A stretch of 64,000 bases of DNA from NCBI GenBank assembly GCA_017647405.1, contig JAGCKR010000063.1, forward strand, positions 6,956-70,955. The letters run 5' to 3'. Source of the DNA: Alphaproteobacteria bacterium (GTDB lineage Bacteria; Pseudomonadota; Alphaproteobacteria; CAAHEQ01; UBA3637). The notes beneath the pieces are model-generated. The model made no database searches and was not told the origin of the DNA. It worked only from the letters and a program-made list of their open reading frames with translations. The position numbers were made by a program, and so were the translations under genes. This document shows, piece after piece, positions 6,316 through 48,725 of the stretch (the stretch's first letter is position 1; each line of letters begins with the position of its first letter).

Positions 6316-7128
6316 TCATACTTCATGCGTATTTTCAAGTGTTTGCCCCAATCGAACAGGGAAAATTTCTTTGGCAAAGCCTGTTTTTTCGTCAATATCC
6401 GCAATAACGGCACAAAATGTTGAATTTTTTTCAGCCGGCTCCAACCTGCTTCTTTTGGCATCAGTTAAAAATCTTGGGAAAGCAGATTCCTTTTTCATAC
6501 CAATCACCGAATCATAATCTCCACACATTCCCACATCCGAAATATATGCTGTCCCAGAGGATAAAACATGCGCATCCGCTGTTGGAATATGGGTATGTGT
6601 TCCCACAACCAAAGAAGCATGTCCATCCAAATAATGCCCTAAAGCAACTTTTTCAGCTGTTGCTTCCGCATGAAAATCAACAACCAAAACATCATAATCT
6701 TTTCCTTTTTTATATGCTTGAAGCCATTTTTGGATCGATTCAAAAGCGCTTTCACTTGTTCGCATAAAAACATTTCCGATCAACTGAACAACTGCAACTT
6801 TTACACCATTAGCATCTTGAAGAATTGTAAACCCCCTACCAATTGTATTTTCAGGATAATTCATGGGGCGAATAATATTATCTTCAGAATTTAAAATCGG
6901 GAAAATATCCGCTTTATCAAACGAATGATTTCCAAGAGTAATCACGTTAACACCAGCATTCAAAAAAGCACTATATATTTTAGGCGTTATGCCAAAACCA
7001 TGTGCAGCATTTTCGCCATTAACAATAATAAAATCCAATTCAAATTTTTCTTTTAATTTTGGCAAATATGATAAAACCAACTTTCTGCCGGCTTTACCGA
7101 CAACATCACCACAAAACAATATTTTCAT
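6316..7128 (-). CDS. YmdB-like metallophosphoesterase
   Basis: The protein is 270 aa. It carries MKILFCGDVVGKAGR, VNGENAAHGFG, DFHAEATAEK and GTHTHIPTAD, which are typical of the YmdB family. Confidence 0.85.
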   Translation of the reverse strand: MKILFCGDVVGKAGRKLVLSYLPKLKEKFELDFIIVNGENAAHGFGITPKIYSAFLNAGVNVITLGNHSFDKADIFPILNSEDNIIRPMNYPENTIGRGFTILQDANGVKVAVVQLIGNVFMRTSESAFESIQKWLQAYKKGKDYDVLVVDFHAEATAEKVALGHYLDGHASLVVGTHTHIPTADAHVLSSGTAYISDVGMCGDYDSVIGMKKESAFPRFLTDAKRSRLEPAEKNSTFCAVIADIDEKTGFAKEIFPVRLGQTLENTHEV

Positions 7129-43139: not shown

Positions 43140-44549
43140 TTATCTTTCCTTTTCATTTAATTTTAAAAGCACTTTCTTTTTTTCTTCTTTTTTCACTTCT
43201 TCTGTTTTTTTAGATTCAACAGCTGTTTCAACAACTTTTTTCACATCTTCCTTTTTCTCAACTTTTGGCAAGTTTTCAGCTCCTTTTTGAGAAGAAATTT
43301 CTTGAACAACAGCTTTTTCCTTATCCGTTATTTCTTTTGTTTCGCCCCAAACTTTATTTTGCTTTGATTTTAAATCCACTTCTCTGTCATTCTTTCCTTT
43401 TTCAGCCATCTGATGCGTAAAGATAGGTTTAGCCTCTTCTAAAAGTTGCTTATTTAAAGATTCCTCCGGCTTAATACCAAAGAGTTTATACATTTCTTCA
43501 ACACCTTTAACAACCCCTCCGGCAGCCTTTCCAACCTCATTATCAAAACGAACAGAACTGGCTATTTCCTTTAACCCGGAAACAGATTGACCAACTTTAC
43601 CGGCACGCAATCTTGAAATTTGCAGTTTAACAACATCCGATGAGGAACGCATCAATGATTTTAAATTCTTTCGCATACTATCGCGAATTTTATCATATTT
43701 ACCGACCATTTTTTCAGCATTTTGAAAAGTTTTTTGAAATTCTTTATCCTGCATCATCTCTTGTAAAAAATCTTTATTTTCAGGTTTTTTCAAGATTTCA
43801 AGTCCTTGCTTTTGCTCTCTCGGATCTTTATTTTTCAACTTTTGATTAATAAACTCTTTCTTTTGCTCAGGTGTCATCCGATTAAAATCAGGTTGAACAG
43901 GTTTTTCACCTGGACGTAAAGGCCTGTTTTGTCTATTCACCGGCTGCCCTTTTGAATGCGCACGGTCATCTTGTTGTTTCTTCTTGGCCTCCTCATACAT
44001 CTCATCTTTTTCTTTTTTTGTCATAGCACCACGACGCGCCGTTCCTTTAAAAGTGGCATCCATTGCCGGCATATCAAGTTTGGGAATCCCAAGAAATTCT
44101 GATTGTGAAATATATTTCGGTTTCTTTTGTTCCGGATCCCATGGACTAACAATCCCCTGCTCCAAATCATCAATTTCTTTTTCTAAGTCGGAAAGCTCTT
44201 TTTCATTTTTGTTAATGAAAAATAAAACGTAATTAAGACCGCGTTTAATCCACTTTTTATACTTTAATAGTTTCTTTTTAGGATGTGTTGGATCTTCATC
44301 CTCTTCATCGTCATCATCATCTTTTTTAGGAGACAAAACATCATCTCGATATTCATCTTCTTCGAGCTGATAAGGAAATTCATTTTGAATATCTCGTTCA
44401 ATTTGCTCTAATTCTTCCGTTTTATTCTGAACAAATTTTTCAGCGATTTCTAAGCCTTTTTCAATGCGGCCTTTTTTCTTTTTCAACTTTGAAATTTGTT
44501 GTTCTTGAGTCAACTGTTCTTGCATAAACACCTCCGCCTTTTTGTTCAT
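43140..44549 (-). CDS. Hypothetical highly charged (Lys/Glu/Asp/Gln-rich) protein
   Basis: The ORF is 469 aa with no signal peptide or TM segment. It has an acidic run (KKDDDDDEEDEDP), coiled-coil-like segments and a lysine-rich C-terminus. I recognise no family. Confidence 0.5.
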   Translation of the reverse strand: MNKKAEVFMQEQLTQEQQISKLKKKKGRIEKGLEIAEKFVQNKTEELEQIERDIQNEFPYQLEEDEYRDDVLSPKKDDDDDEEDEDPTHPKKKLLKYKKWIKRGLNYVLFFINKNEKELSDLEKEIDDLEQGIVSPWDPEQKKPKYISQSEFLGIPKLDMPAMDATFKGTARRGAMTKKEKDEMYEEAKKKQQDDRAHSKGQPVNRQNRPLRPGEKPVQPDFNRMTPEQKKEFINQKLKNKDPREQKQGLEILKKPENKDFLQEMMQDKEFQKTFQNAEKMVGKYDKIRDSMRKNLKSLMRSSSDVVKLQISRLRAGKVGQSVSGLKEIASSVRFDNEVGKAAGGVVKGVEEMYKLFGIKPEESLNKQLLEEAKPIFTHQMAEKGKNDREVDLKSKQNKVWGETKEITDKEKAVVQEISSQKGAENLPKVEKKEDVKKVVETAVESKKTEEVKKEEKKKVLLKLNEKER

Positions 44550-44585: not shown

Positions 44586-45272
44586 TTAACGCAAAACCAA
44601 TCTGTTAAAATCATTTTGAAGGGTCTGAATTAACTCATTATTTTCAAAAAAAGAATCTATTTCACTTTGAGATGGCGGATTGGTATCTCCAGGAAAAGTA
44701 CGATATTTCTGAAGGGCAAATTGAGGAATACGATATTCTTTTAACTGTGATGCAAGTAAATAAATATCTTCAATGGTTAAATGTTTCGGATCTAAAGTGG
44801 TTCGAACTTCAAAATCAATGTCTGAATCTGATAAAATTTTCAATGTTTCAAAAACTAAGGAGGAAATTTTTTCTCTTCCGGATAAAAGATGATATTTTTC
44901 TTTTGGTGCTTTAACATCTAATCCCACCCAATCAATGAATGGTAAGATTTCTTTTATTTTTTGTGGATAAATACCGCTTGTATGAATAGCCACCTGAAAA
45001 CCCAACCCTTTAATATCTTGAACGGCTTTTAAAATATCTGATTGCATCAAAGGTTCACCGCCTGATAAAACAACTCCATCCAATCTTTTTTTACGTTCAG
45101 AAAAAAAGCTTATAACTTCATTCCAAGAAAGAGTCCCTGTCTGATTAAAATCCTGCAAATTTGGATTATGACAATATGGGCATTTTAAAGGACAGCCTTG
45201 AAAAAAAACAACACCAGCCAAACGATTCGGGAAATCAATTGTTGTAAACGGCACTAATCCCGCAACTTTCAT
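44586..45272 (-). CDS. nrdG: Anaerobic ribonucleoside-triphosphate reductase activating protein (radical SAM)
   Basis: The protein is 228 aa. It has the CX3CX2C cluster in FFQGCPLKCPYCHNP and the motif GVVLSGGEPL. It lies immediately downstream of nrdD. Confidence 0.9.
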   Translation of the reverse strand: MKVAGLVPFTTIDFPNRLAGVVFFQGCPLKCPYCHNPNLQDFNQTGTLSWNEVISFFSERKKRLDGVVLSGGEPLMQSDILKAVQDIKGLGFQVAIHTSGIYPQKIKEILPFIDWVGLDVKAPKEKYHLLSGREKISSLVFETLKILSDSDIDFEVRTTLDPKHLTIEDIYLLASQLKEYRIPQFALQKYRTFPGDTNPPSQSEIDSFFENNELIQTLQNDFNRLVLR

Positions 45273-45326
45273 TTTTTATCCTTTCATAAGAAAACAGCCG
45301 CTTTTTTTCAAGCGGCTGTATATCTT

Positions 45327-45512
45327 TTAAATGGCCACTGGCATATTGCACTCGGCACAATTTTCTTCAACAAACCAAACGCGTTCTTCAAATTCAGATT
45401 TTTTGCCTTTATTGAAGTGACTAAACGGTCTAAAATATCCCATAACACGGGTCCAGCATTCAACTTGTTGTCTTTCATTTTGGCATTCAGCCAAGATTTC
45501 AGCATCAGTCAT
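45327..45512 (-). CDS. Stand-alone glycyl-radical segment of class III ribonucleotide reductase (61 aa)
   Basis: It contains TRVMGYFRPFSHFNKGKKSEFEERV, the NrdD C-terminal glycyl-radical signature (RVxGY...N.GK..E...R). There are four Cys residues (C10, C19, C52, C55). Its own TAAGGAG Shine-Dalgarno site lies 7 nt upstream of the ATG. Confidence 0.75.
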   Translation of the reverse strand: MTDAEILAECQNERQQVECWTRVMGYFRPFSHFNKGKKSEFEERVWFVEENCAECNMPVAI

Positions 45513-45530
45513 TTTTTAGTCTCCTTAAAA

Positions 45531-47585
45531 TTAAGATTGAGTTTCCATTTCTTTACGTTTACGTTCAATCAATTCTTTATCGCAAAGCGGACAGAATTTA
45601 TGTTCCCCACTAATATATCCATGTTTTGGACAAATTGAATAAACTGGCGTAATAGAAACGTATGGTAAACGATAGTTTTCCAACACACGGCGAACCAATG
45701 CTTTACAAGCAGAAGACGAGGAGATTCTTTCACTCATATAAAGGTGCAACACTGTCCCGCCGGTGTATTGTGTTTGTAAATCATCTTGATAATCAAGCGC
45801 TGTAAACGGATCATCAGTAAATCCAACAGGTAATTGAGAACTATTTGTATAATATGGAGCTTCTTTTGTTCCAGCTTGAATAATATCTGGGAAACGCTTT
45901 TGATCCTCTCTGGCAAAACGATATGTTGTTCCTTCTGCCGGCGTTGCTTCCAAGTTATACATATTTCCTGTTTCTGCTTGATAATCAAGCATTTTTTCAC
46001 GAATATGTGTTAAGAATTTTTGAGCAAATTCGCGTCCCCATGACGTTGTGATATTTTCTCTATCACCTGTAAAGTTACGAATCATTTCATTGATACCATT
46101 CACACCAATCGTTGAGAAGTGGCTTCTAAATGTGCCCAAATATCTTTTCGTATATGGATATAATCCTCTGTCCATATGCATGGCAATAACTTTACGTTTA
46201 ATTTCAAGAGATGTTTTTGCCAATTCCAAAAGTTCATCCAAACGAGCAAAAAGATTTTCTTCTTTGCCTTTGTGCAAATATCCCAAACGAGCACAGTTAA
46301 TAGTAACCACCCCGATTGAACCTGTTTGCTCGGCAGATCCAAATAAACCACCACCACGTTTTTTAAGCTCAGTTAAATCCAAGCGCAAACGACAACACAT
46401 TGAGCGAACATCACTTGGTTTCATATCTGAATTAACATAGTTTGAAAAATACGGCAATCCATATTTAGCTGTCATTTCAAAGAGATATTCTGTGTTTGGT
46501 GATTCCCATGGGAATTCATTTGTGATATTATATGTTGGAATTGGGAATGTAAACGGACGACCTTTTGCATCACCGGCAGCCATCACTTCTAAGAAAGCGC
46601 GGTTAATCATATCCATTTCTTCTTGCAATTCACCATAGGTAAATTCTTGAACTTCTCCGCCAATAATCGGATGACGATCTTTTAAGTCGGCTGGACATGT
46701 CCAGTCAAAAGTCAAGTTTGTAAACGGTGTTTGTGTTCCCCAACGAGATGGCACATTCAAATTGAAAATGAATGATTGCATTGCTTGCTTAACTTCATCA
46801 TATGTCAATTTTTCAATTCTGACAAACGGAGCTAAATATGTATCCGCTGAAGAAAAGGCTTGAGCCCCTGCCCATTCATTTTGAAGTGTTCCTAAGAAGT
46901 TAATCATTTGAGAGAAGGCTGAAACCAAGTGCCGTGGCGGTTTAGATTCCGTTTTATTGGCAACGCCATTAAAGCCTTCTTCAAGTAAAACACGCAAAGA
47001 CCAACCAGCACAGTAACCAGCCAACATATCTAAGTCATGGATATGATAATCGCCATTTCTATGTGCTTCTCCGATTTCCGGTGTATAAATATGGTTGAGC
47101 CAGTAGTTAGCAACAACTTTACCGGAAACATTTAAAATTAAACCGCCCAAAGAATAGCCTTGGTTTGCATTAGCATTTACACGCCAATCAGAACGATCCA
47201 AATATTCATTAATAGAGGAAATGGCATCAATAACAGCTTTTTTATCACGGCGCATTTTATCGCGTTGTTCACGATAGATAATATAAGAACGAGCTGTTTT
47301 ATAGTAGTTTGAAGAAATAAGAACTTGTTCTACAACATCTTGGATTTGTTCAATCGCAGGGATCACACCATAGGCAAATTTATGTTTTAAAACTTTAATA
47401 ACTTGACGTGTTAAAAGCCAGGCTTCATCCATGCCAAATTCATTTGTGGCATCGCCTGCTTTTCCGATAGCTAAAGCGATTTTGGCCGCATCAAAAGCAT
47501 GTTTTTCCCCATCTCTTTTGATAACTTCGGTCAATGGACCTAAGTCTAAACCCTCACGTTCGTCTTTTTGAACAACTTCTAACAT
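45531..47585 (-). CDS. nrdD: Anaerobic ribonucleoside-triphosphate reductase NrdD, large part lacking the glycyl-radical C-terminus
   Basis: The protein is 684 aa with an N-terminal ATP-cone (VIKRDGEKHAFDAAKI) and a class III core (MCCRLRLD, GSIGVVTIN). It ends at ...SICPKHGYISGEHKFCPLCDKELIERKRKEMETQS without an RVxGY motif. Confidence 0.9.
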   Translation of the reverse strand: MLEVVQKDEREGLDLGPLTEVIKRDGEKHAFDAAKIALAIGKAGDATNEFGMDEAWLLTRQVIKVLKHKFAYGVIPAIEQIQDVVEQVLISSNYYKTARSYIIYREQRDKMRRDKKAVIDAISSINEYLDRSDWRVNANANQGYSLGGLILNVSGKVVANYWLNHIYTPEIGEAHRNGDYHIHDLDMLAGYCAGWSLRVLLEEGFNGVANKTESKPPRHLVSAFSQMINFLGTLQNEWAGAQAFSSADTYLAPFVRIEKLTYDEVKQAMQSFIFNLNVPSRWGTQTPFTNLTFDWTCPADLKDRHPIIGGEVQEFTYGELQEEMDMINRAFLEVMAAGDAKGRPFTFPIPTYNITNEFPWESPNTEYLFEMTAKYGLPYFSNYVNSDMKPSDVRSMCCRLRLDLTELKKRGGGLFGSAEQTGSIGVVTINCARLGYLHKGKEENLFARLDELLELAKTSLEIKRKVIAMHMDRGLYPYTKRYLGTFRSHFSTIGVNGINEMIRNFTGDRENITTSWGREFAQKFLTHIREKMLDYQAETGNMYNLEATPAEGTTYRFAREDQKRFPDIIQAGTKEAPYYTNSSQLPVGFTDDPFTALDYQDDLQTQYTGGTVLHLYMSERISSSSACKALVRRVLENYRLPYVSITPVYSICPKHGYISGEHKFCPLCDKELIERKRKEMETQS

Positions 47586-47623: not shown

Positions 47624-47663
47624 AACACTATATGCAGTCCTTAGTAACAACATATAGTGTTTA
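47624..47663 (-). promoter_or_regulatory. NrdR-box-like inverted repeat in the nrdD leader/promoter
   Basis: There is a perfect 12-bp inverted repeat: AAACACTATATG (47624-47635), a 16-nt spacer, then CATATAGTGTTT (47652-47663). Each arm resembles a half of the NrdR-box consensus acaCwAtATaTwGtgt. TTGACA lies about 45 nt upstream on the coding strand. Confidence 0.45.
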
Positions 47664-48057: not shown

Positions 48058-48096
48058 AATAAAAAGAGGTGGGTTGGAGTCCACCTCTTTATTTTT
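48058..48096. terminator. Terminator after the outer-membrane protein gene (bidirectional shape)
   Basis: AAAAAGAGGTGG-gttggagt-CCACCTCTTTATTTTT. Confidence 0.8.
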
Positions 48097-48116: not shown

Positions 48117-48725
48117 TTAGAAAGAAACTCTTACCCCCGTATAAAATTCATGTGCCGATGTATCAAGACTAATACCATATTTTTCAAAATCACCATAATC
48201 CATATAGCGATAACCTGCATCAATAGCAAAATGATCCGTGATATCATAAGAAATACCTGCCCCTGCTTGCCAAGCAAAGTTTGTTTTCTTAATGTTACCT
48301 GAATATCCCAAAATATCAGCCGTCCCTTTTACATGAGAAACACCTATCCCAGCACCAATATATGGAGTTAATGCAGTCCCTGTTGGCAAATGATAATATG
48401 TATTTAACATAACCGATTGGGTTTCCACTTCAAAATCAATTAAACCATATGGCTTTGTTGAATTAGCGTTTTTGCTGTATTCAAGCTCCGCTCTCAATAT
48501 CCCATTTGAATTCTTATGTGCCACACCAACTGCCACACCAAATCCAGCAACATCTTCATCAACCGTTGTAACATCATATCCACTAGCTGTAACATCAGCA
48601 TCAAAAAGAGAATATTTTGCCTTAACACTCATATACGTTTTAATATCCTCTGAGTTTTGTTGCATTTGAGCTTGAGCATTAAAACAAAATAAGGAAACAA
48701 CGCCCAATAAAAAATATTTTTTCAT
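48117..48725 (-). CDS. Small outer-membrane beta-barrel protein (OmpA-like/Opa-like 8-strand porin family)
   Basis: The protein is 202 aa with a signal peptide (MKKYFLLGVVSLFCFNAQA). It shows alternating aromatic/hydrophobic beta-strand patterns and a C-terminal ...YTGVRVSF ending in Phe. Confidence 0.8.
   Translation of the reverse strand: MKKYFLLGVVSLFCFNAQAQMQQNSEDIKTYMSVKAKYSLFDADVTASGYDVTTVDEDVAGFGVAVGVAHKNSNGILRAELEYSKNANSTKPYGLIDFEVETQSVMLNTYYHLPTGTALTPYIGAGIGVSHVKGTADILGYSGNIKKTNFAWQAGAGISYDITDHFAIDAGYRYMDYGDFEKYGISLDTSAHEFYTGVRVSF

Follow-up and report, generated by a model that had tools for sequence, protein, structure and literature searches.

Can a class III (anaerobic) ribonucleotide reductase (RNR), the enzyme for oxygen-independent synthesis of DNA precursors, be composed of two separate polypeptides, with the glycyl radical carried by the smaller one? 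This question is raised by an nrdD locus on contig JAGCKR010000063.1 of an Alphaproteobacteria bacterium (assembly GCA_017647405.1), of which a stretch of 64,000 nt (positions 6,956 to 70,955 of the forward strand; hereafter the window, whose own numbering is used throughout) was analyzed. Three open reading frames (ORFs) follow one another on the minus strand of the window: a 684-aa nrdD (large subunit, L), a 61-aa ORF (small subunit, S) and a 228-aa nrdG. The activation of glycyl radical enzymes is thought to need a C-terminal radical domain that swings to the activase and back; in the window, the radical loop is encoded by S. We found the two-gene layout to be genuine, conserved and widespread among bacteria, and we consider it very probable that the locus encodes a functional class III RNR made of two polypeptides, the obligate L and S with the radical loop docking in trans, plus an activase. 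The features of the locus are as follows.

47625..47660, minus strand: pair of NrdR-box-like sequences, ACACTATATGTTGTTA and GGACTGCATATAGTGT, upstream of L, with 13/16 and 12/16 consensus matches in a scored scan
45531..47585, minus strand: nrdD large subunit (L), 684 aa, with the C-terminus ...SICPKHGYISGEHKFCPLCDKELIERKRKEMETQS
47256..47528, minus strand: ATP-cone, L residues 20-110, covering PF03477 positions 2-88 of 88
46392..46397, minus strand: finger-loop Cys397-Cys398, alignment-invariant, inside the MCCR motif Met396-Arg399 (46389-46400)
45582..45632, minus strand: Zn ribbon CPKH-x9-CPLC (Cys652, His655, Cys665 and Cys668), placed by alignment to Thermotoga maritima NrdD (TmNrdD)
45534..45581, minus strand: L-specific C-terminal tail DKELIERKRKEMETQS, the 16 residues after the Zn ribbon, absent from one-piece NrdDs and predicted to be helical
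45513..45533, minus strand: junction, comprising the L stop codon TAA and an 18-nt spacer with two further in-frame TAA codons and the Shine-Dalgarno (SD) sequence AAGGAG
45327..45512, minus strand: nrdD small subunit (S), 61 aa, with the glycyl-radical loop TRVMGYFRP (WTRVMGY)
45294..45319, minus strand: terminator-like hairpin with a GC-rich 10-bp stem (6 GC pairs) and a subsequent T-run, located between S and nrdG
44586..45272, minus strand: nrdG, radical-SAM activase, 228 aa (TIGR02495, NrdG2, 204.4 bits with a cut-off of 131.15; PF04055)

To which class does L belong, and what is S? The core of L is of class III: the protein matched PF13597 with 591.7 bits (cut-off 26.2) over profile positions 2-534 of 562 and TIGR02487 with 482.8 bits (cut-off 326), its ATP-cone matched PF03477 (E 7.9e-20), and its best curated match was NF006126, 'ribonucleoside triphosphate reductase' (1142.8 bits with a cut-off of 548, positions 3-661 of 684), while the class I and II models matched the ATP-cone region only. 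When L was scanned for the R[VI]xGY motif, none was found. S matched only the final 36-40 positions of the NrdD profiles (PF13597 positions 526-561, E 5.7e-10; NF006126 positions 643-682), and its radical glycine, Gly25, is encoded at 45440-45438. Thus, L and S jointly cover the NrdD family profile, and the radical loop is not on the barrel polypeptide. PF13597 was the sole hit of S, with no match to the Gly_radical family PF01228 of the pyruvate formate-lyase (PFL) type even at E up to 10. The nrdG gene begins 54 nt downstream of S and is of the NrdG2 type according to TIGR02495. Judged from its sequence, L is the class III catalytic protein NrdD, with the barrel, the Zn ribbon and an adjacent nrdG all found and with the RVxGY motif on another chain. 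A first-pass annotation of this stretch had described a 684-aa L with an ATP-cone and a class III core, RVxGY on a 61-aa ORF, an 18-nt spacer, an SD sequence and an intact downstream nrdG, and had taken the locus for a genuine two-cistron NrdD in which S must supply the radical domain that L lacks. ORF re-reading and the profiles agree with all of these details, the alignment of both ORFs to the NrdD profiles giving L everything except the C-terminus and S the C-terminus only, and the NrdG2 score confirms the activase.

The position of the chain break was assessed by alignment, for which, as for the structure models below, L and S were concatenated by hand. TmNrdD binds Zn via CxxxHx6CxxC, and this ribbon is located after the last barrel strand and before the radical-glycine loop (PMC4493059). 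In the window, the Zn ribbon stays on L, with C652 and C665 invariant in the alignment. The linker that follows the ribbon reads CPVC-GKAKVDEYM-RIVGY in T. maritima NrdD and CPTC-AEQGREQVCEIWT-RVMGY in a one-piece relative (L051, from a Desulfocurvus metagenome-assembled genome, MAG), versus ~40 residues between CPLC and RVMGY in the window, i.e. the 16-residue tail of L plus the 21 S residues before RVMGY. The extra residues around the break, about 25-30 compared with one-piece NrdD, bear out the earlier observation that both sides of the split are extended. By this alignment, the chain break is in a surface linker just after the Zn ribbon, which in one-piece enzymes leads to the loop that enters the barrel. 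The tail pattern D-x-E-[LI]-[ILAV]-x-x-K-[RK] is kept in split L proteins and is not found in one-piece L051. A PDB search with the 108-aa junction fragment alone gave no match; the full L+S sequence aligned to T. maritima NrdD.

Is this arrangement peculiar to one genome? A sample of 85 loci was compiled, consisting of 80 from a one-genome-per-species scan (65-99% identity), four plasmid or chromid loci and the window. An L ORF followed by an S ORF was present in 80 of the 85. Three loci end at a contig edge, one of which still shows S residues 1-12, one is the one-piece gene L051, and one, L034, is weighed below. The hosts include gut and rumen Alphaproteobacteria (the clade of the window), Atopobiaceae/Coriobacteriales, Elusimicrobiota, Sutterella, Duganella, Undibacterium and Kangiella, as well as Burkholderiales, Rhodocyclales/Rhodocyclaceae, Thiobacillus, Methylophaga, Obscuribacterales, Latescibacterota and Acidobacteria. 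Two loci titled 'Lactobacillales' and 'Holdemanella biformis' (L025 and L026) carry an alphaproteobacterial-type split nrdD with 75-77% identity to that of the window; these are Firmicutes bins, and mis-binning is likely. All 85 L proteins of the sample (window and 84 others) contain the MCCR motif. PMC4493059 assigns this variant of the SCCR finger-loop motif to group NrdDh4, and L would fit RNRdb2 subclass NrdDh, group NrdDh4, as judged on the MCCR motif alone.

Protein searches extended the distribution considerably. The S query retrieved 114 stand-alone clusters at 90% identity, all of 50-86 aa and 54-97% identical, and the L query at least 120 clusters that were 84-99% identical, those listed all being 681-716 aa long, which is the truncated form. 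With S of Cupriavidus metallidurans as the query, at least 4814 stand-alone clusters were found (90% identity, E <=1e-3), the best 120 of which were all 44-81 aa. The consensus of 231 S proteins is ERQPCEVWTRVMGYHRPVSSFNKGKKGEFAERRWFSE, in which the WTRVMGY, RP, FN-GK, E and ER positions are near-invariant. For the S core (37 codons), the nonsynonymous rate (dN) was 0 against the three closest relatives at synonymous rates (dS) of 0.32-1.05, and dN/dS within the clade was 0.03-0.07 at dS 1.3-2.0; over the full length, dN/dS was 0.01-0.10 for L and 0.02-0.19 for S. Both L and S are therefore under strong purifying selection. The search of relatives and the dN/dS analysis of the 61-aa ORF, two checks that the first-pass annotation had proposed, thus both speak for the split.

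The same layout occurs in well-known cultured bacteria. A tblastn search with S against plasmids and chromids matched 161 records, including those of the Ralstonia solanacearum megaplasmid, C. metallidurans CH34, Paracoccus denitrificans and Bradyrhizobium. On pHG1 of Cupriavidus necator H16, a 2031-nt L is followed 142 nt downstream by a 201-nt 'nrdD' (WP_011154154.1) and then by the activase. In the RefSeq record of Azospira plasmid pAZI09, a 2040-nt 'ribonucleoside triphosphate reductase' precedes a 180-nt 'nrdD, anaerobic ribonucleoside-triphosphate reductase' and then the activase. The nrdDG enzyme of C. necator pHG1 is described as essential for complete denitrification (PMC2864759); a system with the L-S-activase layout is thus reported to work in vivo. 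The genome paper of C. metallidurans names NrdDG as Rmet_5137 and Rmet_5139 and leaves the intermediate number unnamed (PMC2864759), and we infer that this number is the S ORF.

Has the split been recognized before? Both coding sequences (CDSs) are in RefSeq, and databases generally name L 'ribonucleoside triphosphate reductase' and S 'nrdD', 'NrdD-like' or 'hypothetical'. In the open-access papers and preprints searched, no description of a split NrdD was found, and term searches of papers on RNR evolution and recent class III structures returned no mention of one. According to a 2026 review of glycyl radical enzymes, in which class III is not treated in depth, formate lyases are the only enzymes for which small glycyl-radical spare parts are known. 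The split layout is thus already recorded in databases, with the window as an ordinary member, and appears to be undescribed in the literature searched. The first-pass annotation had named no earlier description of such an NrdD and had asked for a database check, and for this literature its statement holds. A reading in which the arrangement is special to this genome is not supported, given its presence in many phyla, in cultured model bacteria and among RefSeq CDSs; the annotation's proviso that the split might prove real without being novel applies at the database level. One survey filters RNRs by a length of 400-1100 aa (PMC9531940), and surveys that filter by length in this way, or by the glycine motif, will drop or mis-score split NrdDs.

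Another important question is whether the chain was broken once or repeatedly. The 150 nearest 50%-identity representatives of L comprised 102 without a glycine motif in the last 90 residues and 48 with one. In a quick distance tree (neighbor-joining), all 80 locus-verified split L proteins fell into a single clade of 98 leaves, in which only three one-piece sequences (L051, P0366 and P0367) were nested; outside this clade, one-piece and glycine-less forms were interleaved. We read this topology as suggesting that one old fission was passed down through a large clade, with re-fusion on rare occasions, and that other fissions occurred independently. The three nested sequences probably represent secondary re-fusions. 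They carry an S-type loop W-[TS]-R-V-M-G-Y (WTRVMGY or WSRVMGY) and have neither the L tail nor the S N-terminal segment. A separate case was found on a phage-like contig (L085:1355-4334, terminase nearby), where P0441, a 944-aa glycine-less NrdD ending in CPHCNK with nrdG upstream, is followed after 16 nt by a 42-aa radical-loop ORF, MDICGKECKVYSRVCGYIRP..., without the extra tails. This locus is split at the joint between the Zn ribbon and the glycine loop, and the same joint therefore broke more than once. When cultured phages were searched by tblastn with the phage-type S, three matches were obtained, of which two carry an NrdD annotation and one lies in an unannotated record. A stand-alone glycyl-radical ORF is also conserved in T4-like phages: the small ORF vs.6 has a Pfam match to the PFL-type Gly_radical family and occurs in genomes that encode NrdD as well (PMC1524935).

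Two further observations were made among the representatives. Many of P0355-P0504 are 1000-1880 aa long and match the query in 2-5 stretches, indicating inteins at several sites, including the CC finger-loop motif. Six others (P0363, P0370, P0399, P0402, P0425 and P0498) are glycine-less L proteins with a thioredoxin-like end (...SAPTLVV...) in the place of the radical domain, and this extension may provide a thioredoxin-dependent NrdD with a fused reductant.

How would two polypeptides act as one enzyme? In the mechanism that we propose, L and S would be translated from a single NrdR-controlled mRNA, S with its own ribosome-binding site, and in other lineages by way of an overlap between the S start and the L stop. 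L would give everything except the radical site, namely the allosteric ATP-cone, the ten-stranded barrel, the MCCR finger loop and the Zn ribbon, and S would be the detached C-terminal glycyl-radical loop of NrdD. Since L is without any radical domain, S must supply it and cannot be merely a spare. By homology, the beta-hairpin of S would insert non-covalently into the barrel of L and bring Gly25 against the finger-loop cysteines, as the covalent loop does in TmNrdD, and the basic L-specific tail and the N-terminal segment of S, both predicted to be helical, may clamp S in place. NrdG would abstract the glycine hydrogen from S, either free or docked, and later catalysis would proceed as in one-piece enzymes of the NrdDh type. 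A loop acting in trans is plausible because the glycyl-radical domain is highly mobile and must leave the core for activation (class III structure papers) and because GrcA, a non-covalent glycyl-radical domain, can serve oxygen-damaged PFL (2026 review).

Two AlphaFold2 (AF2) runs were made on the fused L+S chain. In run 1, with a shallow multiple sequence alignment, L was modeled confidently and resembled the class III RNR structures 8P2S, 4COL and 1H78 (template modeling scores, TM, of 0.70-0.75). Run 2, with one-piece representatives and S sequences in the alignment, gave S a helix at 687-693, a hairpin at 704-707/710-713 with the glycine at its tip and a helix at 719-726, with a predicted local distance difference test score (pLDDT) of about 70-87 (74-87 over the hairpin part); the tail of L formed a helix at 666-682 (pLDDT ~65-72).

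Several points weigh against a working two-polypeptide enzyme and have to be set beside this evidence. A complex of L and S, a radical on S and enzyme activity are here predictions from sequence. S had a pLDDT below 52 in run 1, and L residues 398-650 collapsed in run 2, probably because of intein-rich rows in the alignment; neither model is confident over the whole chain, and docking is suggested by homology only. The genetic evidence from C. necator concerns nrdD and nrdG, not the small ORF itself. Finally, in L034 (a Holosporaceae MAG, JAISZX010000101.1), L is present, but the ~3 kb to either side of it contain neither S nor nrdG; the partner genes may sit elsewhere in that genome, or its L may be a relic.

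Why should an enzyme of this kind be split at all? A neutral fission that became fixed explains the split well enough. It is conceivable, and we put this forward tentatively, that the split is adaptive: S would be a cheap radical carrier, activated by NrdG off the enzyme, loaded into L and replaced after oxygen cleavage at the glycine, which would spare the 78-kDa L as a built-in form of the GrcA-type repair of PFL. This proposal refines the two-polypeptide reading and does not exclude it. It is consistent with the many hosts that are facultative denitrifiers or microaerophiles cycling between oxic and anoxic conditions (Cupriavidus, Ralstonia, Paracoccus, Bradyrhizobium, Thauera, Duganella and Kangiella), with the cleavage of glycyl radical enzymes by oxygen at the radical glycine and the rescue of PFL by GrcA (2026 review), with the flipping out of the highly mobile radical domain for activation and with the independent recurrence of fission at the same joint; the hairpin at 45294-45319, acting as a partial terminator, could moreover give L and S a higher dosage than nrdG. 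However, the split is also found in strict anaerobes (gut Atopobiaceae, Elusimicrobiota and gut Alphaproteobacteria). Translation of S is usually coupled to that of L, or the two genes are adjacent, which suggests synthesis at ~1:1 with no excess of S; no additional S copies were seen in the loci, and a free glycyl radical may lack stability on a peptide of 6-7 kDa. In its broadest form, the proposal would make a large unrecognized branch of class III RNRs, spread over thousands of genomes (including C. necator, R. solanacearum, P. denitrificans and B. japonicum), a two-component radical enzyme with a free 5-8 kDa radical protein that NrdG activates off the catalytic subunit and that is swapped after oxygen damage; we regard this generalization as possible though doubtful. 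If S is indeed replaceable after oxygen cleavage, facultative anaerobes and denitrifiers could restore anaerobic DNA synthesis cheaply.

A different role for S was suggested by its four cysteines (Cys10, Cys19, Cys52 and Cys55 in the window), which the first-pass annotation had regarded as a possible private zinc site and which might form a Zn or Fe site like those of the Fe-S or rubredoxin-like small subunits of benzylsuccinate synthase (BSS), 4-hydroxyphenylacetate decarboxylase (HPAD) or 1-methylalkylsuccinate synthase (MASS). At least one tail cysteine is indeed present in 172 of the 231 S proteins, and most have a cysteine at position -8 or -6 from the glycine. The conservation pattern is nevertheless the wrong one: Cys10 is confined to the nearest relatives and is not conserved even among close ones, the C-terminal CxxC occurs in only 16 of the 231 proteins, 59 have no tail cysteine and many a single one, and the S proteins of Kangiella and Duganella end without any. 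The profile search of S returned no Fe-S or rubredoxin family match, and the Zn ribbon is on L. A metal site in S is thus improbable, and the zinc-site suggestion was not upheld. The cysteine before the radical glycine, found in almost all S proteins, lies at -8 in 147 of 231 and at -6 in 95 of 231; the clade of the window has it at -6 (Cys19, 45456-45458).

Could the stop codons be read through or bypassed, yielding a one-piece, full-length NrdD after all? In favor of this, S of the window is in the frame of L at a distance of 18 nt. The junction reads TAA TTT TAA GGA GAC TAA AAA ATG, however, so that ribosomes would need to pass three TAA codons in frame, and its AAGGAG at 45526-45521 is 8 nt upstream of the S ATG at 45512. 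Among the related loci, the L-S spacer ranges from -4 to +269 nt and is often out of frame, with -4 nt (an ATGA or GTGA overlap) in 12 loci; TAA, TAG and TGA are all used as the L stop codon; the start codon of S is ATG in 77 loci and GTG in three; an SD-like motif lies upstream of the S start in nearly all of them; and gene callers report a stand-alone S of 45-80 aa across thousands of assemblies. The variation of spacers, the mixture of stop codons and the conserved S starts with SD motifs exclude read-through or frameshifting as a general route to a one-piece protein, and we give recoding very little credence for the window itself. That a recent nonsense mutation or a misassembly broke a normal nrdD, for which nothing speaks beyond the bare presence of stop codons, is more improbable still and is refuted by the comparative data, i.e. 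the same break in 80 of 85 loci from independent assemblies and the window, and also in finished genomes and plasmids, the narrow length and high identity of the L clusters, dN/dS well under 1 in both L and S, the intact nrdG and the NrdR boxes. The first-pass annotation had argued against a single nonsense mutation or a frameshift from the three TAA codons and the separate SD sequence, and the conserved layout, the purifying selection and the variable spacers with conserved starts corroborate this.

The regulatory and neighboring sequences can be described briefly. Most of the related loci carry NrdR boxes upstream of L, and relatives have better ones than the window at the same place (e.g. 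16/16 in L016). A scan of the window for the NrdR consensus allowing <=3 mismatches gave no match; the two weak NrdR-like boxes listed above also form a perfect inverted repeat of 11 bp (AACACTATATG/CATATAGTGTT). Upstream of L in L016, L011, L018-L023, L030-L050 and L081, the boxes were clearer, either single or in tandem, with a distance of ~31-33 bp in some cases. Directly downstream of nrdG, there is an ORF of 469 aa rich in Lys and Glu (43140-44549, minus strand) with no NCBIfam match. On the other side of the locus, a gene for a 202-aa beta-barrel outer-membrane protein (48117-48725, minus strand) weakly resembles the Adr family of rickettsial adhesins (NF052636, E 1.4e-12, under the cut-off) and is followed by a strong hairpin at 48063-48090.

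What would a two-polypeptide NrdD mean for this enzyme family? A natural enzyme with a separate radical loop of 45-76 residues would show the tether to be unnecessary. S would offer a minimal and tractable substrate for activase recognition, radical installation and radical hand-over, and the layout is present in several genetically tractable hosts, so that these ideas are directly testable.

Finally, the split NrdD was compared with known systems. It shares with one-piece NrdDh enzymes (T. maritima NrdD, PDB 4COI/4U3E, and N. bacilliformis NrdD) the NF006126/PF13597 family and fold, the CC finger-loop motif (here MCCR), the CxxH...CxxC Zn ribbon, the R-V-x-G-Y loop, the NrdG partner and NrdR control; it differs in having a chain break that separates the Zn ribbon from the radical loop and in carrying the radical glycine on a separate protein of 45-76 aa. 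The split class II RNR NrdJa/NrdJb (Pseudomonas aeruginosa and Thermus phage phiYS40) likewise consists of two consecutive ORFs with a short spacer and has a C-terminal functional module on the second polypeptide, but it belongs to another RNR class with another cofactor and is biochemically characterized, and L is not homologous to the B12-dependent NrdJ core. Interrupted phage nrdD genes (T4 with I-TevII; phiAS4) are also encoded in more than one piece. In those genes, however, a mobile element interrupts the gene, which is spliced or broken elsewhere, whereas the window has an 18-nt spacer with an SD sequence and no mobile element; the break of split NrdDs is fixed at the joint between the Zn ribbon and the glycine loop, and the inteins of homologues are at other positions. 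HPAD gamma, BSS beta/gamma and MASS beta/gamma/delta resemble S as small polypeptides that bind a catalytic subunit, some of them touching the glycyl-radical domain, but they are HiPIP- or rubredoxin-like metalloproteins whose radical glycine is on the large subunit, whereas S is itself that radical loop, without a conserved metal site. The closest parallel in function is GrcA/YfiD, which the first-pass annotation had already named. Like S, it is small, stands alone and is essentially a glycyl-radical loop; both presumably receive their radical from the cognate radical-SAM activase and insert non-covalently into a large barrel. This likeness holds as a functional analogy and not as family membership, since S lies outside PF01228. 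Moreover, S is co-transcribed directly after L, and while GrcA backs up a PFL that has a radical domain of its own, L has none, so that S is obligate.

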